Shown: positions 4,034-37,368, numbered from the stretch's first letter. The stretch is DNA of 64,000 nucleotides from Clostridia bacterium (GCA_017937135.1 JAGBEE010000003.1:8637-72636), one strand, 5' to 3'. Program-made: numbers and translations. The notes: a model not told the origin generated them from the sequence alone.

Positions 4034-4037
4034 ATTT

Positions 4038-6410: not shown

Positions 6411-6543
6411 TGTGAAATCTCCTTTTCTGTCAATTTTTTGGCGCACATCTTTTGTATTTCACTAAAGAAGCGCGCCGTATGCTCAAAAATATAAAATGTG
6501 GTATAAAATCACCCCTTATTTTGTGGGGGAGTGATACTATTAT

Positions 6544-6559
6544 ACCACATATATAGTGT
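6544..6559 (-). promoter_or_regulatory. Candidate NrdR box upstream of nrdD
   Basis: ACCACATATATAGTGT. The right half matches the NrdR consensus half-site TATAGTGT and the left half is offset by 1 nt. A weaker AT-rich candidate (CATTATATATATTG, 7311-7324) lies upstream of nrdG. Confidence 0.4.
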
Positions 6560-6597
6560 TAAGTCAACATGTATTTTAACAATATCTTGTGTTTTTG

Positions 6598-7290
6598 TCA
6601 AATTCCGCGAATTTCGGCATTTGGCACAAATTGGGTGGCGATTTCACCCATTTTTTTGAGTTTTTCGGGGCAAATGGCACAAAGACCACTTGAAATAATG
6701 TCGCCTGAGTCAACAAAATTCTGCAAATAATATTTTTTTGCGCCCCAAATAACCTTGCATATATTTTCTATATCCTCCTCGGTGTGAAATTGGCTTACAA
6801 TTGTCGTTCTAAATTCATAATCTATTTTGCCCGAAAGAAGATAATTTATGCTTCTTTTTAATGGCTCAATATCAAGATTTTCTATTCCTGTGGTGAGTGG
6901 GTATTTTTCAAACGAATTTTTTATATCCATAGCGACATAATCAACAAGACCGTTTTCGATAAGATCTATCATTTTTTCAGGGAAAAAGCCATTTGTGTCA
7001 AGCTTGATAGAGTAGCCAAGAGCCTTAACCCTTTTTAGAAAATCAGTAAGGTTATCTCTTAAAAGAGGTTCACCACCTGTAATAACAACGCCCTCTAAAA
7101 TTCCCTGACGCTTTTTTAGGTACGAAATAATCTCGTCCTCGGCAATTGTATATTCATTATCTATATGTGTAACTAATGATGCATTATGGCAAAAGGGACA
7201 GCGTAAATTGCATCCGCCAAGAAATAAAATACATGCCACCTTACCTGGAAAATCAAGCAGAGTGAGCTTTTGAAAACCGTTAAATACCAT
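6598..7290 (-). CDS. nrdG: Anaerobic ribonucleotide reductase activating protein (radical SAM)
   Basis: 230 aa with radical-SAM cluster motif CNLRCPFCHN and the glycine-rich SAM motif GVVITGGEPL. RBS AAGGAG. Confidence 0.9.
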   Translation of the reverse strand: MVFNGFQKLTLLDFPGKVACILFLGGCNLRCPFCHNASLVTHIDNEYTIAEDEIISYLKKRQGILEGVVITGGEPLLRDNLTDFLKRVKALGYSIKLDTNGFFPEKMIDLIENGLVDYVAMDIKNSFEKYPLTTGIENLDIEPLKRSINYLLSGKIDYEFRTTIVSQFHTEEDIENICKVIWGAKKYYLQNFVDSGDIISSGLCAICPEKLKKMGEIATQFVPNAEIRGI

Positions 7291-7972: not shown

Positions 7973-9934
7973 TTATTTTTCAATAACGAACACAGGCTTT
8001 TCACTAACGTTAATAGCTACAAAGCCATTTTCATTTTCAAGGTCCGTACGAAGACCATTATAGCGCTCGAATTCAAGCTCGGAGAGAATAAATTCGCCAT
8101 TTCCAACATTAAGCCTGTAGCCATCAACCTTGGTTGAATTGGAGGTTGGGCACCATACAGCATATCTTGCCTTGGAATCCTTTGTTAAGTATTTGAATAT
8201 CTTTACGTTTTCATTTCCAGAGTCAACCTCACACTCAAATGAAGTATTACCGATAATCTCCTTTGTTGTGTAAACGTAGTAGAAGGAGTCCTTTTTGTTA
8301 CCTTGAATTACGTTATTTGCGCTGATTTCGATAGGATGACGAACCAAGCCTGATGAGCCATATTTACCAACAGCAGTTTCCTCAGGACCACAGTCGCGTG
8401 ACATATACATAGCTGCGCGCTCAACGCCTATTGAGCTAAGGAGCAAATATTCACGAACAAGCCACATACCCTGTACCATACGTCCTGTATATTCACCGTA
8501 TGCGTGAGCAGATGTAGATGTTTTGTATGATTGGTTAGTATCCCAGCCAAATTCGGTAAGCCAAATTTCAAGGTTAGGATGATATCTGTCGCGCCAGTCC
8601 ATAATCTCCTCAAATGCGCCAACGATATTTCCTTCCTCGGGGCTAATACCGACGTAAATCTTATCTCCCTGGTCGCCTCTGTCCTCAATATTTATATCAA
8701 CTATCTTTTCGATTTCAGACTTGTCGTAGCACTTGCCACAGTATCTGTGCGCGTTGATTACGTCAAATGGGAGCTTGCCGTCTGGACGATTATGCTTTGC
8801 CCAAAACTCCATAGCACGTAGGTAGTTAGGGTTAAGACCTGCGCCACCCGACATAGACATAATAAAGTTAGGGTCAGCCTGCTTTACGCCGACATTTTTA
8901 TATTTTCCACAGTGTCCGTCGTAGCACATGCTTAAAAATGCTGCAAGCTCAAATGGTGAGAAGTACTGCTCACGACCTGACCACGTTCCGTCAGGCTCGT
9001 TAAGAGGCTCAAGAGCGTTAAGATATCCAAGACCTATCTTCTTTTCCTGTCCCTCATCAATCTGAATAAGCTCTGGGTCGATATTCTTGTTATGTCCGTA
9101 GCGCGCTACAAATTGGAAGAGCATAGTAGCATAGGACATATAGTTGTATGGGTCTGTTGAATCACAGGTTCCGTCCTTTGGAGTCCTTTTATGGTGAGTT
9201 GAAATAGTAGGGCAAACGTTTATTCCATATTCGTGCATACGCTTGTAATAATCGTCAAAGTCCCACATTTTATTTAAGCTTGGATTCATAGCTATAGTAG
9301 TAGCCTCACCGTTAGGAACGGTAGTCCACATCCAAGGGTGATACTCACGAATGTAGTTTACAGCACGGTTAATATCGTCAGCATCATTTATAAATGCATT
9401 CATACCAACAAAGCTGCCCAAATCCTTTTTCTTGTGTGGCTTTTTTGGCGGTGGAGTCAAATCAATATCCTCAACCTTATAGCCGTAAATTAAAATTTCA
9501 CTTGGCGCTTGGTTGTTGTTAAAGCTAAAGCTGATGTATCGAGTCTTGAAGCTCGTTTCAAAACCTGTCCACTTTCTTTGCTCGGGAGCAAGCACCTCGT
9601 TATATTCCCAGCTAAATGGAGTACCCATCTTAACTCTAACCTTACGAACACCGTAGTCAGCCTTGTCCTTTTCAGGCTTATAAGCGTCGTAGTCGTTGTA
9701 AATATACATATTAGTAATTTGGTAGATACCATCTAACTCAACAGTGAATGCAAGGTCGGTTTGACCAATCCACCAGTGGTCATGTCTTGGGTGAACCTGT
9801 GGAATTGCGCCCGGTGTGCCGTATAGTGGGTCACCATCGTTATCAAATTCGCAGAAAAAGTTAGAAACCCTTTCAATACCCATATCGTTGATAATCATTT
9901 CGGGTGTAATTCTGATTTTTTGTGAAGCTGCCAT
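7973..9934 (-). CDS. Clan GH-A-like glycoside hydrolase with an N-terminal beta-sandwich module; no signal peptide
   Basis: 653 aa. Acid/base-type LNEPDGTW and nucleophile-type WLTEFGWDTN motifs typical of (beta/alpha)8 clan A hydrolases. Paralog of 9968..11923. RBS AAGGAGAA. Confidence 0.75.
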   Translation of the reverse strand: MAASQKIRITPEMIINDMGIERVSNFFCEFDNDGDPLYGTPGAIPQVHPRHDHWWIGQTDLAFTVELDGIYQITNMYIYNDYDAYKPEKDKADYGVRKVRVKMGTPFSWEYNEVLAPEQRKWTGFETSFKTRYISFSFNNNQAPSEILIYGYKVEDIDLTPPPKKPHKKKDLGSFVGMNAFINDADDINRAVNYIREYHPWMWTTVPNGEATTIAMNPSLNKMWDFDDYYKRMHEYGINVCPTISTHHKRTPKDGTCDSTDPYNYMSYATMLFQFVARYGHNKNIDPELIQIDEGQEKKIGLGYLNALEPLNEPDGTWSGREQYFSPFELAAFLSMCYDGHCGKYKNVGVKQADPNFIMSMSGGAGLNPNYLRAMEFWAKHNRPDGKLPFDVINAHRYCGKCYDKSEIEKIVDINIEDRGDQGDKIYVGISPEEGNIVGAFEEIMDWRDRYHPNLEIWLTEFGWDTNQSYKTSTSAHAYGEYTGRMVQGMWLVREYLLLSSIGVERAAMYMSRDCGPEETAVGKYGSSGLVRHPIEISANNVIQGNKKDSFYYVYTTKEIIGNTSFECEVDSGNENVKIFKYLTKDSKARYAVWCPTSNSTKVDGYRLNVGNGEFILSELEFERYNGLRTDLENENGFVAINVSEKPVFVIEK

Positions 9935-9967: not shown

Positions 9968-11923
9968 TTACTCACTAAATATAAGAATAGGTTTTTCGCT
10001 GACGTTTACTGTAACAATGCCATCCTTTACAGTAAGAGAAGAGGAAACACCGTCTGTATCTCCATTTTCAAACTGTGTAAGAGTAGCCTTAGTTCCATCT
10101 ATATTAAGCTTAAAGCCGTCAACCTTGATATCGTCCATGGTTGGACACCATAGAGCATAGCAGGATTTTCCCTCGCCGTTTTCAAAGCGATAAATCCAAA
10201 CGTTTTCATTTCCCGAATCGATAATCTCGGCAAAATGCATATCATTCATAGTCGCCTTTAGGGTGCTTATGTAATAATATGAGTCCTTGTATTCGCCATT
10301 AACCGTTACAACACCACTTGTGCCATATTTTCCAATGCCGGTTGCCTCATCACCCTCATCGCGTATCATATACATCGCAGCACGGTCAACACCAACAGAT
10401 GCGAACATAAAGTATGCACGCACAAGCCACATAGCTTGAAGCTGTCTTGCTGTGAAATTTGCGTATGGGTGGCACGCATTTTCGGTTTCATAGCTTGTAT
10501 TAGTATCCCAACCAAATTCAGTAACCCAAACCTCAATATCGGGATAATACTTATCTCTGTATTCGCAGAGCTTTTTAACCTCGTCGGTTATACCACCGAT
10601 TTCGGGGCAAACACCAACATAAACCCTGTATCCATTAAAGCTAATTAGCTTTTTACAATATGTATGAACATTAAATGCATCCATAGCAACCTTGCCATCG
10701 GAGCGATTATTTTCCATCCAGAAAACCATAGATTTTATGTATCTTGTCTGTATTCCCGCAAGACCTGCCATAGCAAGCTTCATATTTGGGTCTGCATTTT
10801 TGATGCCGATGCCACTCTTGCTCTCAGTCTTAACAGTGTTTACGTGTCCGTCATAAGCGCAGGAGGTGAGCGCTGCAAGCTCATATGGGGTAAAGCCGTC
10901 ATTTCCCTCACCATTTGGTTCATTTCCAGCCTCTATCCACGTAATGTAGCCAAGATTCATTCGTGTTCCACCTGATACGGTGTAAATTAAATCCTCGGTA
11001 TTTAACGGGTTGTTACCAAATCTAAGCGCTGTTTGATAAATAAGCTCGGAATACATAACGTATGCGCTCGGATCTGTTTTATCCTTGCCCTCAAGAGCAG
11101 GAGAAACGTTTGGGAACATAAAGCAGGGAACACACTGTACACCATGCCTTTTTGTTAATGAGCTATACGCGCTTGTGTATGTAGAGGTAACATTATCACC
11201 AAAGCTTACAGCCTCGTTTGGATATTTTGATTTATCATAAAGCCAAGCCCAGTTTATATAATCCCTAAAATAGCTTGCACATTTTATGTTCTTTTTGCCA
11301 TCTGAGTCTATTCTATTACCGTTCGCGCCAAGGAAATAGCTAAAATCCTTGTAATTGTGCGCCTCGGTATTGACAGGCTCATATTTTGATGTAGCATAGC
11401 CATAGAAAAGAATTTCCCAAGGAGCGTGCTCATTATCAAACAAAAGATTTACATATCTTGTTTCATAGTCAATCTCAATTTTGTGCCAGCCCTTGCCTAA
11501 GCCCTTCGCTTCATATTTTTCTTCATACTTAAAGGGAGTGCCAGCCTCGGCAGTAATTGATGAGGAGTCAGAGCCAAAATAAACGTAAAAGCATTCAACA
11601 TAGCATTTAAGTCCAAAATCAACAGTTACCTCGAAAATGTGTGTTTTGTCCTTGTCGGTTAAATCACCGTCATTATCTGCATCAAGCAGCTCAAGTGCGC
11701 TTTTTGGCGCTTGGTGCTTGGAAATATCTGGGGTGAGATGAATATTGCCAATGCTTGTTTGCTCATCAAACATAGGTGAGAAGTCCTTTAAGGACGTGCC
11801 TACATATGTCATATTCTCATAATCAATTGGTAGTAGCTTCGTGTCCTCTGAGCAAGCAGAGAAGGCTAATATAGCGCATAAAACCAAAGCGCAAAGGCAA
11901 ATCTTTAAAAACTTAGTCTTCAT
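9968..11923 (-). CDS. Clan GH-A-like glycoside hydrolase lipoprotein
   Basis: 651 aa. Lipobox signal peptide (LAFSAC). Motifs GNEPNGEG and WVTEFGWDTN. Same architecture as 7973..9934. Confidence 0.75.
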   Translation of the reverse strand: MKTKFLKICLCALVLCAILAFSACSEDTKLLPIDYENMTYVGTSLKDFSPMFDEQTSIGNIHLTPDISKHQAPKSALELLDADNDGDLTDKDKTHIFEVTVDFGLKCYVECFYVYFGSDSSSITAEAGTPFKYEEKYEAKGLGKGWHKIEIDYETRYVNLLFDNEHAPWEILFYGYATSKYEPVNTEAHNYKDFSYFLGANGNRIDSDGKKNIKCASYFRDYINWAWLYDKSKYPNEAVSFGDNVTSTYTSAYSSLTKRHGVQCVPCFMFPNVSPALEGKDKTDPSAYVMYSELIYQTALRFGNNPLNTEDLIYTVSGGTRMNLGYITWIEAGNEPNGEGNDGFTPYELAALTSCAYDGHVNTVKTESKSGIGIKNADPNMKLAMAGLAGIQTRYIKSMVFWMENNRSDGKVAMDAFNVHTYCKKLISFNGYRVYVGVCPEIGGITDEVKKLCEYRDKYYPDIEVWVTEFGWDTNTSYETENACHPYANFTARQLQAMWLVRAYFMFASVGVDRAAMYMIRDEGDEATGIGKYGTSGVVTVNGEYKDSYYYISTLKATMNDMHFAEIIDSGNENVWIYRFENGEGKSCYALWCPTMDDIKVDGFKLNIDGTKATLTQFENGDTDGVSSSLTVKDGIVTVNVSEKPILIFSE

Positions 11924-12133: not shown

Positions 12134-12300
12134 TACCCAACCCAGTGTTTAAAAAAGCATAAAAGATTACATTTTTTAAAAGCAAGATGCTTTGTTAATT
12201 TTTTTTGAACATACTACAAATAAAAAATGTTTTATCGACACTCCTTGACACTTTTTGCTTGATAACGCTCTTATATGGTAGCTTGTACCACTTGACAGAC

Positions 12301-12329
12301 TTGACTTTTTATATATTTTATGATATTAT
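12301..12329 (+). promoter_or_regulatory. Candidate SigA-type promoter of the lipoprotein operon
   Basis: TTGACT, 17-nt spacer, TATTAT. About 48 nt upstream of the ATG at 12377. Confidence 0.45.
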
Positions 12330-12376: not shown

Positions 12377-15300
12377 ATGAAGAAGATGAAAAAGGCGCTT
12401 ACCCTATTCTTAGCGCTCCTTATGCTCGCAACGGTTGTTTTGCAAATGGTTGCTTGCGGTGTGACAGAGGACCCTGTGGATACAGGCTCTGAGAATAATG
12501 TTGGTAATGCAACCTACACAGTGAAGATTAAAACACTTGGTAATATGCCACTTAGTGATGTTACTGTGTACTTAATCGACAAGGACGGAAATATCGTCGG
12601 CCGTCCAGGTGTAACCGATTTAGAGGGAGTTGTTTCCTTTACTGCACCTAAATCAAACGATTATTCTATTGAAATTTCTGACGGAGTGCCCGAGGGATAC
12701 TTAGTGGCAGACTCATATAAGCTAAGCGAGGTTGGAAATGAAATAATCCTTACATCAAAGGTAATTGATGATGAAAAAACCGACTCAAATTTTTATGAGA
12801 CGGGAGACATTATGTACGACTTTACCGTTACTGACGTTAATGGCAATGAGGTAAAGCTATCAAAGCTCCTTGAAAAGAACAAGGCAGTTTTATTAAACTT
12901 CTGGTATGTTGACTGCTCCTGGTGTCAAAAGGAATTCCCTGATATGAACGCAGTTTATAAGGACTATAAGGACAAGGGAATAGAAATTGTAGCTCTTAAT
13001 GCAGTTGATACAAATGCTGATATTCTTTCCTATAACAAGCCTTCATCAGGCTATCTTAAGGAGCCACTTGAATTTATTCTTGCTCGCGATACAGCAGGAA
13101 TTACATCTATGTTCAACGTTCAAGGCTTCCCAACAAGCGTAGTTGTTGACCGTTATGGTATGATTAGCGTTATTGAGTCTGGAGCTATAATAGGCGAATC
13201 ATATTTCAAAAATGCCTTTGACCACTTTATATCTCCTGTTTATGAGCAGGGCATTTATCAAAGCTTAAAGGAATTTACCCCTGTAATTAAGCCAAATGTT
13301 GATACTCCTACCTCAGAGGCTGTTAAGGATGCTGTACAAAATGGTGACTTTAACGCAACCTATTCAAATGATGAAAATGAGTACTCATGGCCATTTGTAA
13401 TTGGCGAATATGATGGCAAGAAGGTAATTTATCCTTCTAACAAGAAATACGACAACTCATATGCTACATTGTATATTGACATAGAGCTTCAAGCGGGTCA
13501 GGCATTTATGTTTGATTACTTCTCATCAACAGACCTTGGCTACGACGTTCTTACTATTTCTGCAACAGCAGACGGAATTACAAATGAAATTTATTCAATT
13601 TCAGGTATAGGCGAAGAGTGGGAGAAGTGCTGTGCATATGTTGCTAAGGAAACGGGAACATATCGCATTGCAATGTTCTATGTTAAGGATGAATCCGATT
13701 CCGAGGGCGATGATACAGTATATCTTACAAATCTAAGAGTTGTAGATAGCGAAGAGGTTGATGTTGAAACCTATATTACACGTCCGGCAGTATCAAAGCC
13801 AAACAGCACAGGCTCTGACTTTGAAAGCTATGTAGAAATTGTTCTTGGCGACGACGGATATTACCACGTTGGAACAAAGGACGGCCCAATTCTTCTTGCA
13901 AGACTTATGGGCGTAACACCATTTACTGATAAGTTCACAGACAGATACACAGTTAACGATACTCTTTATAAGAATTTTGTTACAACTGATGAAAACACAG
14001 GAATCTCTAAGTATGGTGAGTTCCTTATTGACGGTGAAAACTGCTTGACAGCATTTATTAGATATTGTAACTATGCATCAAATGCTTCTGTTACAGGCTT
14101 CTGTAGTGTAACACCTGAGCTCAAGACATATCTTGACGCATTTGCAAAGAAGTTCGGCACAGGCTATCACGAAAATCAATGGCTCCAAATGTGCTTCTAT
14201 CTTGATTCCTATGGAACAGACAAGGAATACGAGGACCCAATTAAGGGACTTACCTCATTTAGCGCATACGAGGCAGTAATGGGCGAGCCTAACTCTGTTT
14301 CATACAGTAAGATTCTTCTTCCAAGAGGAAAGCTTTATAGATTCGTTCCAACAGAATCTGGCGTATATAGATTCAGAACAAACTCTAAGCAAGAGGTTCT
14401 TGGCTGGATATTCATTAACGACCACGATTATTGGATAGCTAATGGCGATGATAGAACAATGTATGAGCAAAGTGATCAAGGCTCAAGAGAACCATACTAT
14501 ACAAATCTCGTTGACACAGGTAGAGTTGACCCTGAAACAAAGGAGCCAATTTACGAGGTTGATAACACAAATGCAGAAATCACTGCATACTTAGAGGCAG
14601 GTAAGGAATACTACGTATCCTTTGCATACTATGACCTCTATGGTGTAGGCACATTCACATTTGATATAAGCTACCTTGGTAGCACATACGACTTCTTTGT
14701 AGCTGCATCCTCTGGCGCATTTACAACAGAGCTTCTTCCAGGTGATATATTGGGTGATACTATCTCAGGTGGTGTTGATATTTATCTATCAGCTGACGGA
14801 TATTTCCATCACTTAATTAAGACCTACACAACAGAAGAAGAGGCGCAGGAGGCAGGATTAACTCTTGTACCAAGCGACGTATTACCTGATGATATGGGCA
14901 AATACTACGAGCTTTGTACCTATGATAAATGTACAGTATGTCCTAAGCATGCAAAGGAGCAAGGAGCAGACCTCTCAACAAAGTATTACCACTACCGTGG
15001 CTCAGTGCTTTATGCAGACTTTAAGTTCCCAACAAACATCTTCCAGACAGACCTTATTACTAACCTAATAGACAAGGGTGCGTTCAACTTCACAAGAACG
15101 GAAACAGATGAGGATGCGATTAAGAACGGCTATGTAACAAAGACCGATGACGAGCTCAAGAAGCTGTGGGGAGACAGCTATGAATATGCAATGGATTACT
15201 ATCAGATAGATGATTTAAGAAAAGGCATTTATCACGGAAAGGGTGAAGATAGAACGGAGGAAATTCGTTCTTACCTTGAAAGGATGATACCTGAAACAGT

Positions 15301-15466
15301 AGAAAATCCTGAGCTTCAGGGCTGTGTAATGGTTGATGAGGAGCTGGCTGACCTTCTCCAAAGCCTTATGGATAAGTACAGCTTGACAAACGAGGGCTAT
15401 TCAATAACACACTCATTTGCAAAGCTTTGCTACTACTACAAGCAGCTTGGCACAGTAATTGACTAA
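12377..15466 (+). CDS. Large surface lipoprotein with a prealbumin-like domain, a TlpA/ResA-like thioredoxin domain (CSWC) and uncharacterised C-terminal domains
   Basis: 1029 aa. Lipobox (QMVAC) then GVTEDPVDTGS. Carboxypeptidase-regulatory-like segment (YTVKIKT...VSFTAP). AhpC/TSA-type thioredoxin fold LLNFWYVDCSWCQKEFP...GFPTSVVVD. Confidence 0.85.
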   Translation: MKKMKKALTLFLALLMLATVVLQMVACGVTEDPVDTGSENNVGNATYTVKIKTLGNMPLSDVTVYLIDKDGNIVGRPGVTDLEGVVSFTAPKSNDYSIEISDGVPEGYLVADSYKLSEVGNEIILTSKVIDDEKTDSNFYETGDIMYDFTVTDVNGNEVKLSKLLEKNKAVLLNFWYVDCSWCQKEFPDMNAVYKDYKDKGIEIVALNAVDTNADILSYNKPSSGYLKEPLEFILARDTAGITSMFNVQGFPTSVVVDRYGMISVIESGAIIGESYFKNAFDHFISPVYEQGIYQSLKEFTPVIKPNVDTPTSEAVKDAVQNGDFNATYSNDENEYSWPFVIGEYDGKKVIYPSNKKYDNSYATLYIDIELQAGQAFMFDYFSSTDLGYDVLTISATADGITNEIYSISGIGEEWEKCCAYVAKETGTYRIAMFYVKDESDSEGDDTVYLTNLRVVDSEEVDVETYITRPAVSKPNSTGSDFESYVEIVLGDDGYYHVGTKDGPILLARLMGVTPFTDKFTDRYTVNDTLYKNFVTTDENTGISKYGEFLIDGENCLTAFIRYCNYASNASVTGFCSVTPELKTYLDAFAKKFGTGYHENQWLQMCFYLDSYGTDKEYEDPIKGLTSFSAYEAVMGEPNSVSYSKILLPRGKLYRFVPTESGVYRFRTNSKQEVLGWIFINDHDYWIANGDDRTMYEQSDQGSREPYYTNLVDTGRVDPETKEPIYEVDNTNAEITAYLEAGKEYYVSFAYYDLYGVGTFTFDISYLGSTYDFFVAASSGAFTTELLPGDILGDTISGGVDIYLSADGYFHHLIKTYTTEEEAQEAGLTLVPSDVLPDDMGKYYELCTYDKCTVCPKHAKEQGADLSTKYYHYRGSVLYADFKFPTNIFQTDLITNLIDKGAFNFTRTETDEDAIKNGYVTKTDDELKKLWGDSYEYAMDYYQIDDLRKGIYHGKGEDRTEEIRSYLERMIPETVENPELQGCVMVDEELADLLQSLMDKYSLTNEGYSITHSFAKLCYYYKQLGTVID

Positions 15467-15480
15467 TCAATAAGCTGATA

Positions 15481-15504
15481 TGCCACACGCACACGCGTGT
15501 GGCA
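15481..15504 (+). other. Intercistronic GC-rich hairpin
   Basis: TGCCACACGC-ACAC-GCGTGTGGCA (10 bp), with no T-run. It lies between the first and second lipoprotein genes. Confidence 0.5.
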
Positions 15505-15537
15505 TTGGCTCTTATGATAGTGAAATTTGGAGTAAAA

Positions 15538-17208
15538 ATGAAGAAATCAAAGATACTTTTAATAATAAGCGTGCTCGTTTGCTTTATGCTCCTTGTGTGC
15601 TCCTGTGGAGAGGGTGATCCCGTAGATACATCGAGTGGCACAAATGACGAAACGACACAGACATATACCGTAAAGGTAGTAAACTATAAGGGTGAAGCGC
15701 CGGATAAGGACATTATAGTTGACTTTATGAAGGGCGAACAAATAGTAACTACAAAAAGAACAAATGACAAGGGCGAGGTAAGCGTAGCTCTTGAAAAGGG
15801 CGAATACAAAATAGTGCTTTCATATGCAAAGGGCGCGCCCTATTATGACGCAAGCAAGGCAATATTGACACCAGAGAATAACTCAGTTGAAATTATGCTT
15901 TACGACCTTCCTTTACAGGATAAAATTACAATTTCTCCTGCATATTGGAATGACGAAACGCTTGAATATGACCGTAAGGTATATAATGCAGTTCTTATCA
16001 ACGAGGGTGCAACCCTTGTAAATATAGATGACAAAAACGGTTCATATTACGTATTTACCCCAACGCGAGGCGGTATTTATAAAATTGGCTGTATTGCAAG
16101 CGCCGACGTTAAATTCGGATATTTCGGTGATGCAAACTACGTTCAAGCCGAGAGCCTTGAGCATTTATACAAGGACGGATATTTTGAAATTGAAATTAAG
16201 GACAGTGGTATAAACATAGGAGAGGGAGGAACAACACGCTTGGTATTTGGTGTTACCTCTAAAAAATCAACCGACTGTGTTATTACTATTGAGCGTACAG
16301 GTAATCCTAAGGCAGACCCGCTAAGAATTGACGAAATGCCAAGAGAGGTCTCAGATACAGAATACAAATACGACTATCTTAATTACTTAATAACCGACTT
16401 TGATATTACAAATAAGGAGCTGAAAATCGTATTTAACGAAAACGATGGCTTCTATCATTTGAATACACAAGACGGACCTGTTATTTTTGTAAGAGTAGCA
16501 AGCGATAATGCTTATTCAATATCCTTCTATGATATATGTCAGCTCACATCGCTTCATATGTATGAATATGATGAGGACGGCGCACCTATAAAATACCATA
16601 ATTACAACCCAATTTTTGAGGCATATGCAGAAAAATGCGATGGTGCAGGAATTTGTCCTCTTACAAGCGAGCTTATGAATGCTATCAAAAATGCAGGCGA
16701 GGAAAAGAATTGGTGGAACTTTGAAAATGAGGAAACACCAATGCTTTCAATGACAATTGAAGGCTTGGAATCTGGCGTAACAAAGGAAAACATCTGCCTT
16801 GAAAATGCGTGGGCGTTTGCTTGCTGTTACGTGGATTTTGATGCATTTGGCTCGGAAAGCAGTCCAATCAAATTAGAAATTGGCGACCCTTACGAGAGTA
16901 ACGTAAATGGTACATCTGTTACAAGCTATATAAAATACAACGCCTTAGTAGGCACAGAGGCAACATACCTTAAGCCAGCAACCTTAGGTGGTTATTTAAC
17001 TATTGAGGGCGCAAAAAATATTACAGTAGTATATGATGGCGTAACATACGTAGCTGATAGTGAGGGCAATATAACCGTTGATGGTGTAGAATTTGAGGGC
17101 GAGAATATAGTAGTTCATATCAGTGACCCGGAAAAGACAGCCACAATCACAGCGACAGAAAATGAAAGCGAAATTCGCTTCCAATTTACAACAAGCGAAT
17201 TAAGCTAA
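15538..17208 (+). CDS. Surface lipoprotein with a prealbumin-like domain and a domain shared with 12377..15466
   Basis: Start moved to the ATG at 15538 (GGAG upstream). Lipobox LLVCSC then GEGDPVDTSSG. Segment NDGFYHLNTQDGPVIFVRV...CPLTSELMNAIK aligns with DDGYYHVGTKDGPILLARL...CSVTPELKTYLD of the upstream protein. Confidence 0.8.
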   Translation: MKKSKILLIISVLVCFMLLVCSCGEGDPVDTSSGTNDETTQTYTVKVVNYKGEAPDKDIIVDFMKGEQIVTTKRTNDKGEVSVALEKGEYKIVLSYAKGAPYYDASKAILTPENNSVEIMLYDLPLQDKITISPAYWNDETLEYDRKVYNAVLINEGATLVNIDDKNGSYYVFTPTRGGIYKIGCIASADVKFGYFGDANYVQAESLEHLYKDGYFEIEIKDSGINIGEGGTTRLVFGVTSKKSTDCVITIERTGNPKADPLRIDEMPREVSDTEYKYDYLNYLITDFDITNKELKIVFNENDGFYHLNTQDGPVIFVRVASDNAYSISFYDICQLTSLHMYEYDEDGAPIKYHNYNPIFEAYAEKCDGAGICPLTSELMNAIKNAGEEKNWWNFENEETPMLSMTIEGLESGVTKENICLENAWAFACCYVDFDAFGSESSPIKLEIGDPYESNVNGTSVTSYIKYNALVGTEATYLKPATLGGYLTIEGAKNITVVYDGVTYVADSEGNITVDGVEFEGENIVVHISDPEKTATITATENESEIRFQFTTSELS

Positions 17209-17222
17209 TATAGGAGGAAAAT

Positions 17223-19589
17223 ATGGCAAATATCAAAAAAATGCCCCTTATTTTACTTGTGCTTTGTATTCTTATGAGTGCACTTTTAGTTATCACATCA
17301 TGTGGTGGCACAGAGGACCCGGTTGATACAAGCTCAGGCACAGAATCGGGCAATGGTGGTACAAACACAGACCAAACACCAAAATACGTGATTACCGTGC
17401 TTGATGAATACGAGCTTGGCGTTGAGGGCGTTACAGTTCAGCTTTGCATTGGCGAAAACTGCTTAATGCCTGTAAAAACAGATGCAAACGGTAATGCAAC
17501 CTTTGAAAGCGAGCTTACAGGAACAGCATATGTAACAATAAATAGCGTTCCCGATGGCTACGAAAAGCCAAGCGAGAAGGTTTATCTTGAGGACGGACAA
17601 ACAACCGTAACAATTGAGCTGAATTCAATTGTTGAATACAGCGTAAAGGCTAAGCTTGCGCTTTTTGATAAAAATCTTGTTAATGTAGTTGCAGAGCTAA
17701 GAAGGGTTAGCGATAACTCAGTAGTTAATACACAGGTAACAAACGAATATGGTGTAGCAAAATTCTTAGCGCCAAATGGTGAATATTACGTTTCATTCTC
17801 ACACAAAAACCCAGCCTTCAAGCTCTCAAACCCCGATAAGGAGGGCGAGGCAACAAAGGCATATGGCACATCAAGGCTCATAAATGCAGAATTTATCGAA
17901 ACCTTTGACACACTTGACTACAAGCTCAACATAAAAAATGTAGCTGGCAAGGCAGAGTATGGCATTGTGGTTGAGCTTTACGATGAAAGCTTTACGCTCA
18001 TTGATACATATTATTCCAATGAAAATGGCGACATAGAATTTAGCGCACAAAACGGAAAATATATTGCAGTTGCAAGCTTTAAGAATACACAAACAGTGTA
18101 TGCTTTCAGCCAATATGATTCAATCAGTGGCGAAATGGTGCTTAACACTGAGGATAAGGGCTCAAGCGAAAGCTATGCAGAGCTTGTTCTTAGTATGTTC
18201 GGACATAACGCAACAAGTGGAAAATGGTATTACACATTGAATACCGAAAAGAAAATGATAGTTGTATATAGCGAAACAGCAACAGTTGTATATAACGGAA
18301 AAACCTATACCCCTGATAACGAGGGCAAAATCAGTGTAGTATTTGAAAATGGTAATGGAGTATATCAGATTAACGGTGCAGATGCATACGTTGAATATAT
18401 GGGCGCACCGGGAACTGAATCAAATCCAATTATTATTGACTCAGCAAGCATAAACGGCTATGAAATAACCCTCGATCTTTTAGAGGGTGAGAGCTACTAT
18501 TATGCCTTCAACGCAAATGACGATGCTACAATTACTGTAACAACCAATGATAGCATTCAAATAGTAATAAATGAGGTTTTAAAAAGCTCTTTACCTGTAA
18601 TAAAAGGTGACTACGTTGTAATTCGCCTTTCATCTGATGGAGGCAAAATTGAGGGCGCAAAGGTTAATTTTGCATTTGCAAAGACATATGCAGATTATCA
18701 GATAACCGTTAATAAGGATGGCCAGAGCGCACCTGATGGCACAGCCGTTGAGCTTTACAAGTATGACACAAGCACATGGGAATATCAATTAGTTACAAGC
18801 ACTACAACTAAAAATGGTATTGCAGCCTTTGAAAATGTTGAGGTTTATGCATTTTACTATGTAAAGGTAGTTGCACCTGCTGATTACGAGACTGAAAATG
18901 AGTATGAGCCATTCTTCAATGGCGCAACAAGCACAACAATAGAGCTTAGCCACGTAAGAGATGGTTCACTTGAATATCCATTCTTAATTGATGATTCATA
19001 TGCAGGCGGACTCTTATATGATTATGATTTTACCATAGGCGCAGGTGAAACACTCTACTTTGAGGCAGCACCAAATAACTGTGTGCTCAGCGTAAGCATA
19101 AGTGGCATTATTGTTCAGATATTAGAGGATAAGAATAGCGACGGAATTTACGAAACAGTAACAGATGTTGATTCAAGCTACGTATTTGAGGACAAAATGA
19201 ACCCACCAACAATTCTTATTTCTATAAAGAATGAGGGCGAGGCTGCAGAGGGATCAATTTCCTTTGGCGCTAATAATGGCGAGGTAGGCTCATCCTATGA
19301 TAACGCAATTGAGCTTGACGAGGCAGGAGCATATATAGCTGAAATTACAGAGGGCAAAAATGTTTATTATCTGTACAATGGCGACTATACAGGAAGCACC
19401 TTAAAAATCACAGTAACAGATGCAAACGGAAAGCTCATTTCCGTTACAGCAACTCTTGCTGGCACAAGCGAGTCAGTAGAGACAGACAATGAAATAACCT
19501 CTGATTCAGGCGCATCACTAATATTTGCAATCTCATCACAGGATGCTGATTTTACAGGAAATATTAGCTTTACTATAACAGTTGAATAA
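17223..19589 (+). CDS. Surface lipoprotein with repeated prealbumin-like and PPC-like beta-sandwich modules
   Basis: 788 aa. Lipobox VITSC then GGTEDPVDTSSG. About 4 carboxypeptidase-regulatory-like segments and about 3 segments of the G(S/T)ExxP(I/F)xI...YY type. RBS AGGAGG. Confidence 0.8.
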   Translation: MANIKKMPLILLVLCILMSALLVITSCGGTEDPVDTSSGTESGNGGTNTDQTPKYVITVLDEYELGVEGVTVQLCIGENCLMPVKTDANGNATFESELTGTAYVTINSVPDGYEKPSEKVYLEDGQTTVTIELNSIVEYSVKAKLALFDKNLVNVVAELRRVSDNSVVNTQVTNEYGVAKFLAPNGEYYVSFSHKNPAFKLSNPDKEGEATKAYGTSRLINAEFIETFDTLDYKLNIKNVAGKAEYGIVVELYDESFTLIDTYYSNENGDIEFSAQNGKYIAVASFKNTQTVYAFSQYDSISGEMVLNTEDKGSSESYAELVLSMFGHNATSGKWYYTLNTEKKMIVVYSETATVVYNGKTYTPDNEGKISVVFENGNGVYQINGADAYVEYMGAPGTESNPIIIDSASINGYEITLDLLEGESYYYAFNANDDATITVTTNDSIQIVINEVLKSSLPVIKGDYVVIRLSSDGGKIEGAKVNFAFAKTYADYQITVNKDGQSAPDGTAVELYKYDTSTWEYQLVTSTTTKNGIAAFENVEVYAFYYVKVVAPADYETENEYEPFFNGATSTTIELSHVRDGSLEYPFLIDDSYAGGLLYDYDFTIGAGETLYFEAAPNNCVLSVSISGIIVQILEDKNSDGIYETVTDVDSSYVFEDKMNPPTILISIKNEGEAAEGSISFGANNGEVGSSYDNAIELDEAGAYIAEITEGKNVYYLYNGDYTGSTLKITVTDANGKLISVTATLAGTSESVETDNEITSDSGASLIFAISSQDADFTGNISFTITVE

Positions 19590-19690: not shown

Positions 19691-19727
19691 GAGAGCTTGC
19701 GGTTTTGTTGCAAGCTCTCTTCATTTT
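19691..19727 (+). terminator. Inner terminator-like hairpin of the right repeat
   Basis: GAGAGCTTGC-GGTTTTGTT-GCAAGCTCTC followed by TTCATTTT. Confidence 0.55.
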
Positions 19728-19913: not shown

Positions 19914-20177
19914 CTATTTTAATGCTTCTATCGCTAATTTATGACCTATTTCAAAGCCCTTTGTAAAATATTCCTCGTAAAAAAGCATGTTTAATTCACA
20001 TAGCAGGTCCTCGTATTGCTCTACTATTTCATTATTTTCCTTGTCAAGTAATGATAAAATTTTATCATATGCATCGTTAACTTGCTTGGTTAATCGAATT
20101 ATATTTCCGTTTTCAATTCCACATTTTTCGTAATAAAACAAATTACCTCTAAAAATTTTCTTAATTGTTCCTTTCAT
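19914..20177 (-). CDS. Small helical protein of unknown function
   Basis: 87 aa, predicted all-helical, ending FTKGFEIGHKLAIEALK. Resembles small proteins often paired with XRE regulators in Firmicutes accessory DNA (from memory, unverified). RBS AAAGGAG. Confidence 0.6.
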   Translation of the reverse strand: MKGTIKKIFRGNLFYYEKCGIENGNIIRLTKQVNDAYDKILSLLDKENNEIVEQYEDLLCELNMLFYEEYFTKGFEIGHKLAIEALK

Positions 20178-20207: not shown

Positions 20208-20287
20208 TTTTTAACTATTATAGCAAATAATAATGTAAAATTCAAGTGCAATTTATAATTTGTAATTCAAAAATGAGAGGGACATTT

Positions 20288-20506
20288 ATGTATTTGTATG
20301 AAAGAATGCGCCATTTGAGAGAAGATAACGATAAAAATCAAGAGCAAATAGCAAGCATTTTAGGCATAAAGCGTCAACAGTATGCTCGATATGAAAAAGG
20401 ATTGCATGAAATACCCTTGCATTATATAATCACTCTTGCAAAATATTATAATGTCAGTCTTGATTATCTTACAGGGCTAATTGATACACCTAGAAATTTG
20501 TATTAA
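20288..20506 (+). CDS. XRE-family HTH transcriptional regulator
   Basis: 72 aa from the ATG at 20288 (GAGAGGGA upstream). HTH motif QEQIASILGIKRQQYARYEKGLHEIPLHYIITLAKYYNVSLDYLTG. Confidence 0.8.
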   Translation: MYLYERMRHLREDNDKNQEQIASILGIKRQQYARYEKGLHEIPLHYIITLAKYYNVSLDYLTGLIDTPRNLY

Positions 20507-20511
20507 ATAAA

Positions 20512-20545
20512 AAAATCTCAACGAGCCTTCGTTGAGATTTTTTAT
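20512..20545. terminator. Bidirectional rho-independent terminator
   Basis: AAATCTCAACG-AGCCTT-CGTTGAGATTT flanked by A and T runs, between convergent genes. Confidence 0.85.
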
Positions 20546-20546
20546 T

Positions 20547-22493
20547 TTATTTTTCTGTTTTTTGTAGCTGCTCCTTAACAACAGCCTCAAGCTCTGCCAA
20601 TTTTACAGCATATGGCCAATGCTCAATGATAACTCCGTTTTCATCAAGAATAACAGTCATTGGATAGGTGCTGTTTTTTCCACCCATTGTTGTATAATAC
20701 ATATCCTTGTTGCTTCCTTCCTCTAAAGGAATGTCACGCACAAAGACCATTTCGGTATTTGGATATTTTTCACTTATCCATCCCGATGGCTCGTGTAAGT
20801 AATAAACCGTATGTACTGCAACAACCGTTACATTGTCCTTATATTTGCTTGCAATTTCATCAAAGTAGGGTAGCTCCTCAACACAAGGCGTGCACCATGT
20901 GCCCCAGAAGTTTATAATAGTAATTTTTCCCTTATTATTGGCAGGATTAAACTTAACTCCGGTTGGACCATTTGCATCAAATATCTCAAGCTCAAAGTCG
21001 GGGGCAAGGTTACCAACCTCGTTTCCTACAACTAATTCATCTCCCTCGCCGTTGCCGTTGTCATCAACAACGGGTGGTTCCTCGGTGGGAGTGTCGATAA
21101 AGTTGTAATATACGAGTGCGCCAATCAAAAGAGCACTCATAAGAACACCGGCTACGATTTTGAAAATAAGCTTGCGTCTTTCAACCCTTTTTTTCTTTTT
21201 TGTAGCATCGTCTGAGCCTTGTGTATTTTGCTCAGCGTTGTTATTGTTATTATTTGCAGCTGTATCAATTTCATCAGGAGCTAAGAAAATCTTAGAGCCC
21301 TTCCAGCTAATAGCCTTTGTAGGACAAACGTCAATACATTCGCCACAGCTGATACATTCGTGGTCTCCAACGTGCTTAATATCCATTTTACACTTGGTTA
21401 CACAAAGTCCACAGTTAGTGCATTTTGGCTTTTCAAGCTTTATTCCAAATAGTGAAATCTTATTGAAAATACCATAAATTGCGCCGAGTGGACATATGAA
21501 ACGGCAGAATATTCTGTAAATGAATATTGAGCCGACTACAAAGCTAACAAGTAATAGGAATTTCCAAGTAAATAACGGACCAAGCATTGGGAACATCCAT
21601 TCGTTTGCCGCATTGGATAAAAGTCCAAGCGCGCCACCAATAGTGCCGGCAGGACATATGTAAGCGCAGAATGCAGGAAGCGCAACGTCCTTTAGTCCAT
21701 ATAATATCGGTACAATAACAACAAAGAATATTAAAATTACATATTTAAAGTAGGAAAGAACACGTGTAACACGATTTTTCTTTAGCTTAGGAGTCTTTAT
21801 CTTGAAGAAAAGCTCCTGTACAAGACCAAACGGACATAAGAAGCCACAGATAAATCTGCCCAAAAGCATACCATAAAGGAGTAAAATTCCCAAAACGTAC
21901 ATAGGCGTTTTCTTGGATGCCTTATTTAACTCACCCTGCAAGGAGCCAAGAGGACAAGCAGTTGTCGCACCGGGGCAGGAATAACAGTTAAGACCGGGCG
22001 TGCAAAGATTTTTTGTAGCGCCGTCGAAAATGTTGCCTGTAATATAGCCCTTTATGTTTGCATTGAACAAAAGAGCAGAGTAAAGCTGAATAATTCTACG
22101 TCTTGAAGGTATTAGTGATTTTAATCTCTCTTTAAATGACCTTTTTGCCTTTTTTTGTGGGGGAGTGTCTGTTTTTTCGCTATTTTTCTCGGAAGCATCA
22201 TCTTCCTTTGGCTCGTCATTTACATCGCCTTGCTCGGAATATTCCTCGTTTTGTTCGTTTTTTTCTACATATTCCTGCTCATATTGAGTATCAACATCAA
22301 ATTCTTGATTTTCTTCGGTATAGTCGCTATTATTTTCTATCTCATCAATTTCTTCATTTGATTCATACTTATCGTATTCAAGCTCCTTTTCCTTATAGGT
22401 GTCGGAGTAGAGTGGATTAGTAGTATAGACAAAGCCTCTTTCGGAGGAATAAAAATTCAAAACTACTCTTTTAAATTGTCGTTCTTTTGCCAT
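20547..22493 (-). CDS. NapH-like membrane polyferredoxin fused to a C-terminal extracytoplasmic TlpA-like thioredoxin domain
   Basis: Start at the ATG at 22493 (AGGAGG 8 nt upstream). The features, in order: an acidic ~130-aa N-terminus; CYSCPGATTACPLG plus three CxxxCPxG motifs (CGFLCPFG, CAYICPAG, CRFICPLG) in TM regions; two ferredoxin motifs CTNCGLCVTKC and CISCGECIDVCP; KKKKRVERRK followed by a TM helix; and a thioredoxin fold INFWGTWCTPCVEELP. Confidence 0.85.
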   Translation of the reverse strand: MAKERQFKRVVLNFYSSERGFVYTTNPLYSDTYKEKELEYDKYESNEEIDEIENNSDYTEENQEFDVDTQYEQEYVEKNEQNEEYSEQGDVNDEPKEDDASEKNSEKTDTPPQKKAKRSFKERLKSLIPSRRRIIQLYSALLFNANIKGYITGNIFDGATKNLCTPGLNCYSCPGATTACPLGSLQGELNKASKKTPMYVLGILLLYGMLLGRFICGFLCPFGLVQELFFKIKTPKLKKNRVTRVLSYFKYVILIFFVVIVPILYGLKDVALPAFCAYICPAGTIGGALGLLSNAANEWMFPMLGPLFTWKFLLLVSFVVGSIFIYRIFCRFICPLGAIYGIFNKISLFGIKLEKPKCTNCGLCVTKCKMDIKHVGDHECISCGECIDVCPTKAISWKGSKIFLAPDEIDTAANNNNNNAEQNTQGSDDATKKKKRVERRKLIFKIVAGVLMSALLIGALVYYNFIDTPTEEPPVVDDNGNGEGDELVVGNEVGNLAPDFELEIFDANGPTGVKFNPANNKGKITIINFWGTWCTPCVEELPYFDEIASKYKDNVTVVAVHTVYYLHEPSGWISEKYPNTEMVFVRDIPLEEGSNKDMYYTTMGGKNSTYPMTVILDENGVIIEHWPYAVKLAELEAVVKEQLQKTEK

Positions 22494-22538
22494 TAAAATT
22501 CCTCCTTTCAAAAGAATTTAAAATAAATATGGCATATA

Positions 22539-23363
22539 TCAGCCAAGACCGATACATTCTGTACAAATATTAATTGCCTTTTGTAAAACATCCTCCATAC
22601 CACCCGTTACAATACCAACTACAATAAATGTAACGCTAAGGGCGATAAGCAAGCAGCGTGCTATTATCAAAATAGCTTTTTTGTGGTTTTTAAAGAATGA
22701 AACAAATTTACCTTCTTCAGCCTCTTGCTCGGAAATAACGTCCACAGGGTCGCCCCTTTGTATATTCTTAGCAATCGATTTCTTTACTAAGTCAATTTCC
22801 TTCCTAAGAGTATATTTGTTGAAATAAGTGAGCACAAGTCCTAATACAAAAGCAACGACAGCATATCGTAAAAGAACTAAAACAGCATTTCTTACATCTA
22901 TCATCGCGCTATGACCTGCAAAGGTTTCACTATCAAAGATATGAACAAGCGCCATAGCGATATTGATGGCAAAATTAAAGAATACAGCAATTGATAAAAC
23001 AAATCTAAAGGTTCTTTGAGTTTTAATCTGCGCTTGATATTGACTCGGGCAATATTCAAGGCTGATTTTCTTGTAAAGATTTTGTAGTGTTGTTCTTTCA
23101 TCTGGCTTGCTTGCCTTTTTCTTTTCCTCGTTCGGTAAAAAGAGATTTAAGAAGAAAGCTCCAAGAATAAATATGAGGCAAATGTACACTGGTACAGCGA
23201 TTTTTGCAAACGCTTCGCCAATAGCCTCGGGCGAGAAGGGTCTATCTCCACTATTGTAGATGCTTACACATCCAACTATTAAGCAAATGCCTGCGACAAC
23301 GCACAGAACAGAAAGCACAATAGAATAGACCAAGTGTATAATTTTTACCTTGTCCTTTGTCAT
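22539..23363 (-). CDS. Five-TM membrane protein ending in a C-terminal CxxC motif
   Basis: 274 aa. About 5 hydrophobic helices with K/R-rich loops on alternating sides. Extreme C-terminus INICTECIGLG. Lies 27 nt upstream of the polyferredoxin-thioredoxin gene on the same strand. Confidence 0.7.
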   Translation of the reverse strand: MTKDKVKIIHLVYSIVLSVLCVVAGICLIVGCVSIYNSGDRPFSPEAIGEAFAKIAVPVYICLIFILGAFFLNLFLPNEEKKKASKPDERTTLQNLYKKISLEYCPSQYQAQIKTQRTFRFVLSIAVFFNFAINIAMALVHIFDSETFAGHSAMIDVRNAVLVLLRYAVVAFVLGLVLTYFNKYTLRKEIDLVKKSIAKNIQRGDPVDVISEQEAEEGKFVSFFKNHKKAILIIARCLLIALSVTFIVVGIVTGGMEDVLQKAINICTECIGLG

Positions 23364-32432: not shown

Positions 32433-32475
32433 ATTGCTTATTAAATTAAGATAAATAGATTAAGGAGAAAACAAA

Positions 32476-35076: not shown

Positions 35077-35082
35077 TAACCT

Positions 35083-36075: not shown

Positions 36076-36085
36076 GAGGGAGAAA

Positions 36086-37366: not shown

Positions 37367-37368
37367 TT

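Follow-up and report, generated by a model that had tools for sequence, protein, structure and literature searches.

The closest described relatives of the protein considered here are extracytoplasmic thiol-disulfide oxidoreductases of the TlpA/ResA type. It is a predicted surface lipoprotein of 1029 amino acids (aa) with an embedded thioredoxin (Trx) domain, encoded at 12377-15466 on the plus strand of a 64,000-nucleotide stretch of DNA from an uncultured gut Clostridia bacterium (GCA_017937135.1, JAGBEE010000003.1:8637-72636), the whole of which is called the window below. ResA of Bacillus subtilis and B. anthracis (1st9, 1su9, 4nmu) has the same fold at ~30% identity and shares the pattern NFW-x-x-C-x-x-C-x-K-E-F-P. 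Like ResA, the lipoprotein would be extracytoplasmic and membrane-tethered, and it keeps the equivalents of both Glu80 and the cis-proline. However, ResA itself is a single domain of ~180 aa, reduced by CcdA and dedicated to apocytochrome c, whereas the Trx domain of the lipoprotein stands among five others and has no CcdA/ResBC/cytochrome context.

In architecture, a comparison can be made with the ectodomain of DipZ (Rv2874) from Mycobacterium tuberculosis (2hyx, 5cyy), in which a TlpA-like Trx domain is followed by a sandwich resembling a carbohydrate-binding module (CBM), as Trx is followed by the first β-sandwich here. DipZ is an electron transporter, and the Trx-like domain is described as part of its ectodomain (PMC7479077). 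Both entries head the Foldseek matches of our full-length model (352-367 aligned columns, E 1.2e-11, 14-15% identity), although a root-mean-square deviation (rmsd) of ~18 Å indicates a different arrangement of the domains. The DipZ ectodomain is fused to a CcdA/DsbD-type membrane domain. The 1029-aa protein, in contrast, has no DsbD match in Pfam and no hydrophobic segment other than residues 7-25; it would be lipid-anchored, with a separate NapH-like protein as its putative electron carrier. A further ~570 residues of the lipoprotein, comprising two α/β domains and a second sandwich, have no counterpart in DipZ. A preliminary description of this DNA, made from the sequence alone, knew of no characterised example of the architecture, which is nearly right but overlooks the DipZ ectodomain and fusions of Trx to binding domains such as SOQ1, itself among our matches in a profile search of Protein Data Bank (PDB) sequences.

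Etrx1 and Etrx2 of Streptococcus pneumoniae (2yp6, 4hqz, 4hqs) are also surface lipoproteins of a Gram-positive bacterium, with a TlpA-like Trx fold and electrons received across the membrane (PMC3914529). They differ in being single-domain proteins of ~185 aa with CcdA and MsrAB2 as partners in oxidative-stress repair, neither of which occurs in the window or in the homologous loci that we annotated.

The surrounding genes have parallels of their own. NapH-like modules (PF12801; PceC, NosR-type; Meheust et al. 2021) possess a Fer4_5 core, CX3CP motifs and 2x[4Fe-4S], all of which recur in a 654-aa neighbour of the lipoprotein, and in the available passages of the 2021 eLife survey they are proposed to be modular transmembrane electron-transfer units that take electrons to an extracytosolic carrier domain, usually with an outward FMN (flavin mononucleotide)-binding domain (PMC8238504). 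The extracytosolic domain of the systems described in those passages is flavinylated and FMN-binding, whereas the window's neighbour has a TlpA-type thioredoxin and a partner with a CD1871A-type CXXC motif. We found no description of a NapH-thioredoxin fusion with a CXXC partner in the literature, nor is there one in the same passages of the survey. The lactococcal PrtP/PrtM/Opp system likewise sets a surface S8+PA+fn3_5 proteinase beside an accessory lipoprotein gene and an oligopeptide ATP-binding cassette (ABC) system. PrtM, the lipoprotein maturase of PrtP, is a PrsA-type foldase and not a thioredoxin. The reductase-plus-protease systems acting on keratin, unlike the locus in the window, are not a conserved surface-tethered gene cluster.

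The thioredoxin domain and the protein that carries it

The gene is an uninterrupted open reading frame (ORF) of 1029 codons with an ATG start, 7 nt downstream of an AGGAG ribosome-binding site. An identical protein in public data bears the name 'MAG: redoxin domain-containing protein [Clostridia bacterium]' (MAG, metagenome-assembled genome). The preliminary description had given the ORF, the peptides it quoted and the CSWC motif at 12914-12925 correctly. The features assigned along the protein, in part from an AlphaFold2 (AF2) model with its predicted local distance difference test (pLDDT) scores, are as follows.

12377-12457 (+): signal peptide with lipobox, residues 1-27, ending in Cys27, the putative site of lipidation
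12503-12766 (+): immunoglobulin (Ig)-like/prealbumin-like β-sandwich, residues 43-130; strands in the AF2 model, block-mean pLDDT 76-91
12794-13246 (+): ResA/TlpA-type thioredoxin-fold domain, residues 140-290; from Pfam, PDB profile search and Foldseek
12914-12925 (+): CSWC active-site motif, residues 180-183, with Cys180 and Cys183; a helix begins at 181
12932-12934 (+): Glu186, equivalent of ResA Glu80, aligned to the ResA stretch CxxC-K-K-E-F-P
13130-13132 (+): Pro252, cis-proline equivalent, with G-F-P-T-S aligned to ResA P-L-P-T-T; the cis state is taken from the alignment only
13289-13762 (+): jelly-roll β-sandwich 1, residues 305-462, MAM/CBM-like; block-mean pLDDT 82-97
13763-14260 (+): α/β domain, copy 1, residues 463-628; homologous to residues 781-1029
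14261-14716 (+): β-sandwich 2, residues 629-780; strands in the AF2 model
14717-15466 (+): α/β domain, copy 2, residues 781-1029, with a helical insertion; the ORF stops at its end

By its fold, its CxxC motif, its cis-proline equivalent and its location, the Trx domain is a member of the TlpA/ResA-like class. Pfam assigns residues 143-264 to AhpC-TSA (E 1.6e-15, 57.6 bits against a cut-off of 26), a model that also takes in TlpA-like proteins, and residues 143-272 to Redoxin (E 1.7e-13, above the gathering score). When PDB sequences were searched with a profile of 42 homologues, ResA was the best match (E 7.5e-24), followed by other TlpA/DsbE-type proteins, the pneumococcal Etrx lipoproteins, StoA and TlpA. 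The modelled domain (block-mean pLDDT 68-96) overlays with ResA in Foldseek at a target-normalised template modelling (TM) score of 0.85-0.88 and an rmsd of 2.2-2.6 Å, and the residue alignment pairs LNFWyvdCswCqKEFPdM with LNFWGTWCEPCKKEFPYM and gfPTS with plPTT. This likeness to ResA is far beyond chance. A peroxiredoxin was considered and rejected: the CxxC lies in the context NFWYVDC, without PxxxT/SxxC, and the best peroxiredoxin in the profile search reaches only E 1.9e-4, whereas ResA has 7.5e-24.

Conservation of the active site was assessed in 265 family representatives aligned to the family profile, with counts taken over the sequences that cover each position. Both C180 and C183 are present in 259/259 members and E186 in 258/259, and P252 is found in all 261, while the dipeptide between the cysteines ranges over SW (59), TY (45), GP (22), SP (21), TW (20) and others. 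A variable dipeptide between fixed cysteines points to selection on the thiols and their ResA-type surroundings. Thus the extracytoplasmic ResA/TlpA-type oxidoreductase fold of the preliminary description is upheld by the profile search, Foldseek and the ResA alignment, and neither of the two outcomes that it had named as refuting it was observed, the cysteines being conserved and the scaffold ResA-like, as opposed to peroxiredoxin-like or non-redox. The Trx domain is the only recognisable catalytic module of the protein, and its CxxC is predicted to be redox-active.

Hydropathy reveals a single hydrophobic segment, at the N terminus (residues 7-25), and Cys27 is kept in 213 of 214 aligned members; from these two features we infer that the protein is a lipoprotein, extracytoplasmic and tethered to the membrane. 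The lipobox of the window copy, Q-M-V-A-C, is slightly atypical at position -4. A disordered linker (residues 28-42) connects it to the first sandwich, for which Pfam gives weak matches (bMG3, Big_1, Ig_DR_A0283-like). The profile of residues 43-130 matches the SdrD_B/SpaA (prealbumin-like) region encoded by the third gene of the operon (E 4.6e-9), which together with the modelled β-sandwich bears out the prealbumin-like N-terminal domain proposed earlier.

Downstream of the Trx domain, the C-terminal ~740 aa have no Pfam match. The mean pLDDT is 84.4 for the full-length model and 86.4 for residues 300-1029 modelled alone, the latter with a predicted TM score (pTM) of 0.79. Foldseek matches of the C-terminal model comprise MAM domains (meprin, neuropilin-1), CBM61, CBM22, a hyaluronan-binding module, ColG collagen-binding domains and Cry-toxin domains, at 8-16% identity and a target-normalised TM score of ~0.5 for single-domain targets, and the output does not assign these targets to sandwich 1 or sandwich 2. 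Judged from the model, the sandwiches are probably generic binding-type sandwiches, and the 'binding modules' of the preliminary description agree with their resemblance to MAM, CBM and collagen-binding modules. Its ~750 aa of uncharacterised β-rich sequence holds as far as the lack of Pfam matches goes, but two α/β domains lie beside the two sandwiches and the region is not purely β-rich. Sandwich 2 is marked by the invariant residues P649-R650-G651, E740, G742 and Y745. We also observed a low-confidence, Cys-rich insert at 14873-14941 (residues 833-855, containing ELCTYDKCTVCPKH), whose three cysteine positions are empty in 256-257 of 265 family members and which is close to unique to the window orthologue.

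The α/β domain, of ~165 aa, occurs twice in the 1029-aa protein and once in the second lipoprotein (15499-17208). Its two copies here, 463-628 and 781-1029, align in hhalign with a probability of 98.1% (E 6.7e-14), copy 2 being expanded. A profile of the domain found nothing significant among PDB sequences (best E 0.2) or in Pfam. Copy 1 is characterised by R469, Y485, D493-G-Y-Y-H497, G503-P504, W602 and C606, with D493, H497, R469 and W602 as invariant columns; copy 2 has lost the His of this signature. An obligate structural disulfide between C576 and C606 in copy 1 was considered and rejected: C606 is present in 261/264 members and its nearest candidate partner, C576, in 148/264. Since C606 is near-invariant and C576 is not, C606 is not simply half of a structural disulfide. 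For the second pair considered, C983 and C1018, the counts are 199 and 223 among ~235 aligned members. The domain could harbour an active or ligand-binding site and, given its Asp/His/Cys signature, might represent a new substrate-handling or catalytic module.

Relatives of the lipoprotein are numerous: a HMMER scan of 1.8 billion cluster representatives gave at least 560 clusters (50% identity) at E <= 1e-30, and at least 584 stretches of one-genome-per-species GTDB contigs encode one. The best 120 matches are 909-1417 aa long and, the identical entry aside, 35-44% identical over 73-100% of the query. All of the 80 GTDB stretches inspected come from MAGs, largely from the hindgut of sheep, goat, roe deer and water deer, and are labelled Clostridia, Eubacteriales, Oscillospiraceae, Acutalibacteraceae or Ca. 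Fimenecus. The order of lipobox followed by the six domains (Ig-like, Trx, jelly-roll, α/β, β-sandwich, second α/β) is held in nearly all of ~265 representatives. Longer members add only Ig-like repeats, which were also the only additions in seven longer homologues (895-1441 aa) checked for catalytic fusions.

The conserved neighbourhood

The Trx lipoprotein gene is the first of a three-gene lipoprotein operon (12377-15466, 15499-17208 and 17223-19589) with intergenic gaps of 32 and 14 nt. The operon and the genes that follow it are as below.

12292-12329 (+): two overlapping sigma-70-like promoter matches, each 10/12, 5' of the lipoprotein operon
15499-17208 (+): second lipoprotein, a 569-aa ORF that probably starts at Met14 (15538), with an Ig-like domain and one α/β domain
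17223-19589 (+): third lipoprotein, 788 aa; SdrD_B/SpaA-type Ig-like repeats (Pfam SdrD_B, E 9.7e-12, and SpaA)
19691-19719: terminator-like hairpin with a 13-bp stem, after the third lipoprotein gene
20547-22511 (-): NapH-like polyferredoxin-TlpA fusion with a WCTPC motif, 654 aa, or 648 aa from its likely start, Met7 at 22493
22539-23363 (-): five-helix membrane protein, 274 aa, with the CD1871A-type CXXC tail ICTECIGLG
23782-31011 (+): S8 subtilase resembling cell-envelope proteinases, 2409 aa, with PA and fn3_5 domains and many BspA-type leucine-rich repeats (LRR_5)
31083-39835 (+): peptide-uptake stretch, with a 449-aa protein, an 866-aa SBP_bac_5 protein and Opp-type permeases and ATPases (Pfam), kept beside the protease

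The promoter-like sites are consensus matches only, and their number in the region is not above that expected from shuffled sequence. The 569-aa neighbour matches the α/β-domain profile of the 1029-aa protein (E 7.6e-11), in agreement with the earlier remark that C-terminal sequence is partly common to the next gene, and its leader and linker are likewise similar to those of the larger lipoprotein. Among 79 homologues of this second lipoprotein the D-G-x-Y-H motif, the W and the C are all kept.

Pfam divides the product of 20547-22511 into a Fer4_5 membrane core (66.7 bits against 22), a Fer4 2x[4Fe-4S] domain and a C-terminal Redoxin/AhpC-TSA domain. Its score against the NapH/MauN model TIGR02163, 80.7 bits against a cut-off of 213, indicates a protein that is probably NapH-like and not NapH proper. 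All 20 of its cysteines, including those of the CX3CP motifs and the eight of the ferredoxin domain, are invariant in 46 homologues. Its family appears much larger than that of the lipoprotein, with 7989 as against 782 matches at E <= 1e-3, each among 8000 scored candidates. The membrane protein encoded by the adjoining gene matches NCBIfam NF040920 over its last 37 residues (238-274; 43.1 bits against a cut-off of 32), and its C267 and C270 are 100% conserved in 44 homologues; we found no literature on the CD1871A family name. As side observations, the NapH-like protein is extended at its N terminus by ~130 aa of acidic, low-complexity sequence, and some of its homologues (loci L085, L087 and L089 in our numbering) contain two Trx domains.

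The ferredoxin domain of the NapH-like protein, which has 18 Lys/Arg, is predicted by hydropathy and the positive-inside rule to be cytoplasmic, and the TlpA domain, after a helix at 449-467, to lie outside, with the CX3CP motifs at alternating faces of the membrane. The CXXC partner is predicted to span the membrane with five helices and to expose its CXXC tail on the outside. This topology would bring three outward CxxC elements into one neighbourhood, together with a cytoplasmic, low-potential iron-sulfur (FeS) entry point. The S8 protease possesses a C-terminal hydrophobic anchor at 2353-2371 followed by a basic tail, and ~12 of its cysteines are conserved across 23 homologues. Where loci reach past the protease, the family-less, lipoprotein-like 449-aa protein (31083-32432, +) lies between it and SBP_bac_5.

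In the window the NapH-like pair is convergent with the lipoprotein operon and divergent from the S8 protease gene, and the CXXC gene precedes the NapH-like gene. We called ORFs in 84 homologous loci, searched them with the window proteins and scored synteny in those 46 species loci that extend 7 kb or more to either side. A homologue of the second lipoprotein is encoded directly downstream in all 46 and an Ig-like third gene follows in 39/46; the NapH-like-TlpA fusion, the CXXC membrane protein and the S8-LRR protease are each present in 34/46, and at least one of the fusion and the protease in 38/46. Of the 80 loci of the species-genome scan, 46 bear the NapH-like gene, and in 43 of these the CXXC gene adjoins it on the same strand. 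Look-ups starting from five NapH-like homologues (50-59% identity) found all five divergent beside an S8-LRR protease, and in one of these genomes the Trx lipoprotein is encoded on another contig. No genes of the CcdA/DsbD family and no ResBC, Msr or cytochrome genes were found in the 64-kb window or in the annotated flanks of homologous loci, a search that covers the window and +/-10 kb of nine Pfam-annotated loci. GC content across the window stays within 0.36-0.42, and base composition gives no sign of a foreign origin of the locus.

The lipoprotein operon is separated from the NapH-like gene by two small genes, for a DUF6809 protein (19914-20177, -) and an HTH_3 protein (20246-20506, +); homologous loci for which called genes were listed have the NapH-like gene directly after the operon. 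A hairpin at 20510-20543, with a 15-bp stem and T runs on both sides, could be a bidirectional terminator.

A possible surface disulfide reductase

We propose, as a reading to which we give somewhat less than an even chance, that the lipoprotein is a surface disulfide reductase fed by an iron-sulfur/thiol relay and aiding extracellular proteolysis. Reducing power from the cytoplasm would enter at the 2x[4Fe-4S] domain of the NapH-like protein, pass to the CX3CP cysteines in the membrane and from there, by way of the outward TlpA domain and the CD1871A-type CXXC tail, reach the CSWC of the lipoprotein. The lipoprotein would then reduce disulfides of proteins held by its own β-sandwich and α/β modules, and its two co-transcribed paralogues may perhaps hold substrates too. 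Once reduced and unfolded, substrates could be cut by the ~2400-aa surface S8 protease and the resulting peptides imported by the Opp system. Three features favour electron flow in the direction of reduction: a Glu of the ResA type, a partner of the ferredoxin type and hosts that are anaerobes. A connection with proteolysis is suggested only by synteny and by the gain that disulfide reduction is known to bring to S8 proteases on keratin; synergy between the two activities is an established idea for keratin degradation (PMC6095591, PMC7775373).

The preliminary description had placed reductase or isomerase chemistry on a bound extracellular substrate. That interpretation is partly supported, being reasonable but incomplete and unproven, and it missed the conserved neighbourhood, which is the most informative evidence.

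Several observations weigh against a surface reductase of this kind. SdbA, which acts in disulfide-bond formation, has the TlpA fold and is among the matches of the Trx domain, and the fold leaves the direction of the reaction unfixed. The operon is unlinked from the protease or from the NapH-like module in some genomes, each being missing from 12/46 loci, and locus L085 has the NapH-like pair and the protease and no lipoprotein operon within the locus. Furthermore, the proposal would leave the conserved Asp/His/Cys signature that the alignments reveal in the α/β domains without a role.

A wider proposition is that reducing power is exported here independently of CcdA/DsbD, from NapH-like FeS centres to outward thiols and on to a giant, substrate-binding Trx lipoprotein. 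Joined by the S8 protease and Opp, this chain would make up a 'reductive proteolysis' machine with which uncultured gut Clostridia open disulfide-rich host or dietary proteins. This wider proposition is possible but more doubtful. The more novel element is the neighbouring fusion of a NapH-like protein to a thioredoxin domain, which with its CXXC partner is a candidate for exporting reducing power independently of CcdA. Reducing equivalents are known to cross the membrane mainly through the cysteine-based CcdA/DsbD transporters, and, if the proposition holds, the conserved pairing of a NapH-like FeS protein with outward thioredoxins across hundreds of gut species would represent a different solution. 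A substrate-binding disulfide reductase working alongside a surface protease would also account for the access of abundant but uncultured hindgut Clostridia to cross-linked proteins such as mucins, immunoglobulins and plant storage proteins. Even on a conservative reading, the domain map and the conserved neighbourhood improve on the present annotation, which says only 'redoxin domain-containing protein', and the family holds a repeated ~165-aa domain without detectable relatives.

Among the alternatives to a surface reductase, the Trx lipoprotein might instead be a maturation or maintenance factor that keeps the cysteines of the S8-LRR protease and of the α/β lipoproteins reduced, or shuffles their disulfides, much as PrtM serves lactococcal cell-envelope proteinases or ResA serves apocytochrome c. 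Its gene is tightly linked to that of the giant protease, often divergently, and candidate clients exist in the ~12 conserved protease cysteines and in conserved lipoprotein cysteines (C418, C606 and C1018, with C442 in the neighbour). Yet ~750 aa of binding-type modules are not obviously needed for such a task, about a quarter of the loci have the operon apart from the protease, and most of the conserved protease cysteines, we presume, fall in the BspA-type LRR repeats, in which a buried Cys belongs to the repeat consensus. We consider a maturation role unlikely, though worth keeping in view. The near-invariance of C606 (against the patchy C576) and the invariant D493, H497, R469 and W602, with the D-G-x-Y-H, W and C signature recurring among the homologues of the second lipoprotein, would also suit recycling in cis, in which the α/β domain is a Cys-dependent enzyme or redox-sensitive site regenerated by the tethered Trx, as in Trx-MsrA/B fusions. 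We think this distinctly improbable: the neighbour has the α/β domain without a Trx domain, the second copy in the same protein is without the His, and no relative in sequence or fold points to catalysis.

A place in surface antioxidant defence, as a thiol peroxidase or as a donor for Msr-type repair enzymes, could be argued from AhpC-TSA being the top-scoring Pfam family and from the Etrx1/2 structures (2yp6, 4hqz) among the matches. Oxygen stress is plausible for an anaerobe, and an Etrx-CcdA-MsrAB2 system is documented (PMC3914529). Such a role would be very unlikely here, with no Msr gene in the window or the nine annotated loci, no peroxiredoxin PxxxT/SxxC context and peroxiredoxin scores far below that of ResA, and it would leave the binding modules and the protease and Opp linkage unexplained. 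We give still less credence to an oxidase that would form disulfides in secreted proteins, in the manner of SdbA, MdbA or BdbD, even though oxidases with a TlpA fold exist, SdbA (5um7) is among the structural matches and several exported proteins of the locus contain cysteines. The Glu that follows the CxxC is conserved, and in ResA its equivalent, Glu80, is associated with reductase behaviour; in addition, the conserved partner is a ferredoxin-type, low-potential membrane protein and not a quinone-linked DsbB or VKOR, and the hosts are gut anaerobes. Finally, ResA is the best match in both sequence and structure, as would be expected of a ResA/CcmG orthologue for cytochrome c maturation, but this reading is effectively refuted by context. 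We rejected ResA proper on a score of 84 bits against a cut-off of 170 for the NCBIfam ResA model (NF002854), a length of 1029 aa as against ~180 aa, and the absence of any ResB/ResC/Ccs, CcdA or cytochrome gene from the window and the neighbouring loci.

Other genes of the window

Upstream of the lipoprotein operon, the stretch 3140-7290 (-) encodes the anaerobic ribonucleotide reductase NrdD, fused at its C terminus to a thioredoxin/glutaredoxin-like domain, along with the activase NrdG and a flavoprotein resembling TrxB. Loci L004, L011, L038 and L052 likewise have NrdD and the TrxB-like gene close to the lipoprotein locus. Two paralogous proteins of ~650 aa with weak Glyco_hydro_cc matches, containing 10 and 16 cysteines, are encoded at 7973-9934 and 9968-11923 (-) and kept upstream of the lipoprotein operon in 12/84 loci; the 651-aa paralogue has an N-terminal hydrophobic segment and none was detected in the 653-aa one. 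Farther downstream, 46327-49248 (-) encodes a 973-aa protein with an N-terminal HTH_3 domain and C-terminal BspA-type LRRs, which may be a membrane-spanning regulator sensing the same kind of ligand as the LRRs of the protease.

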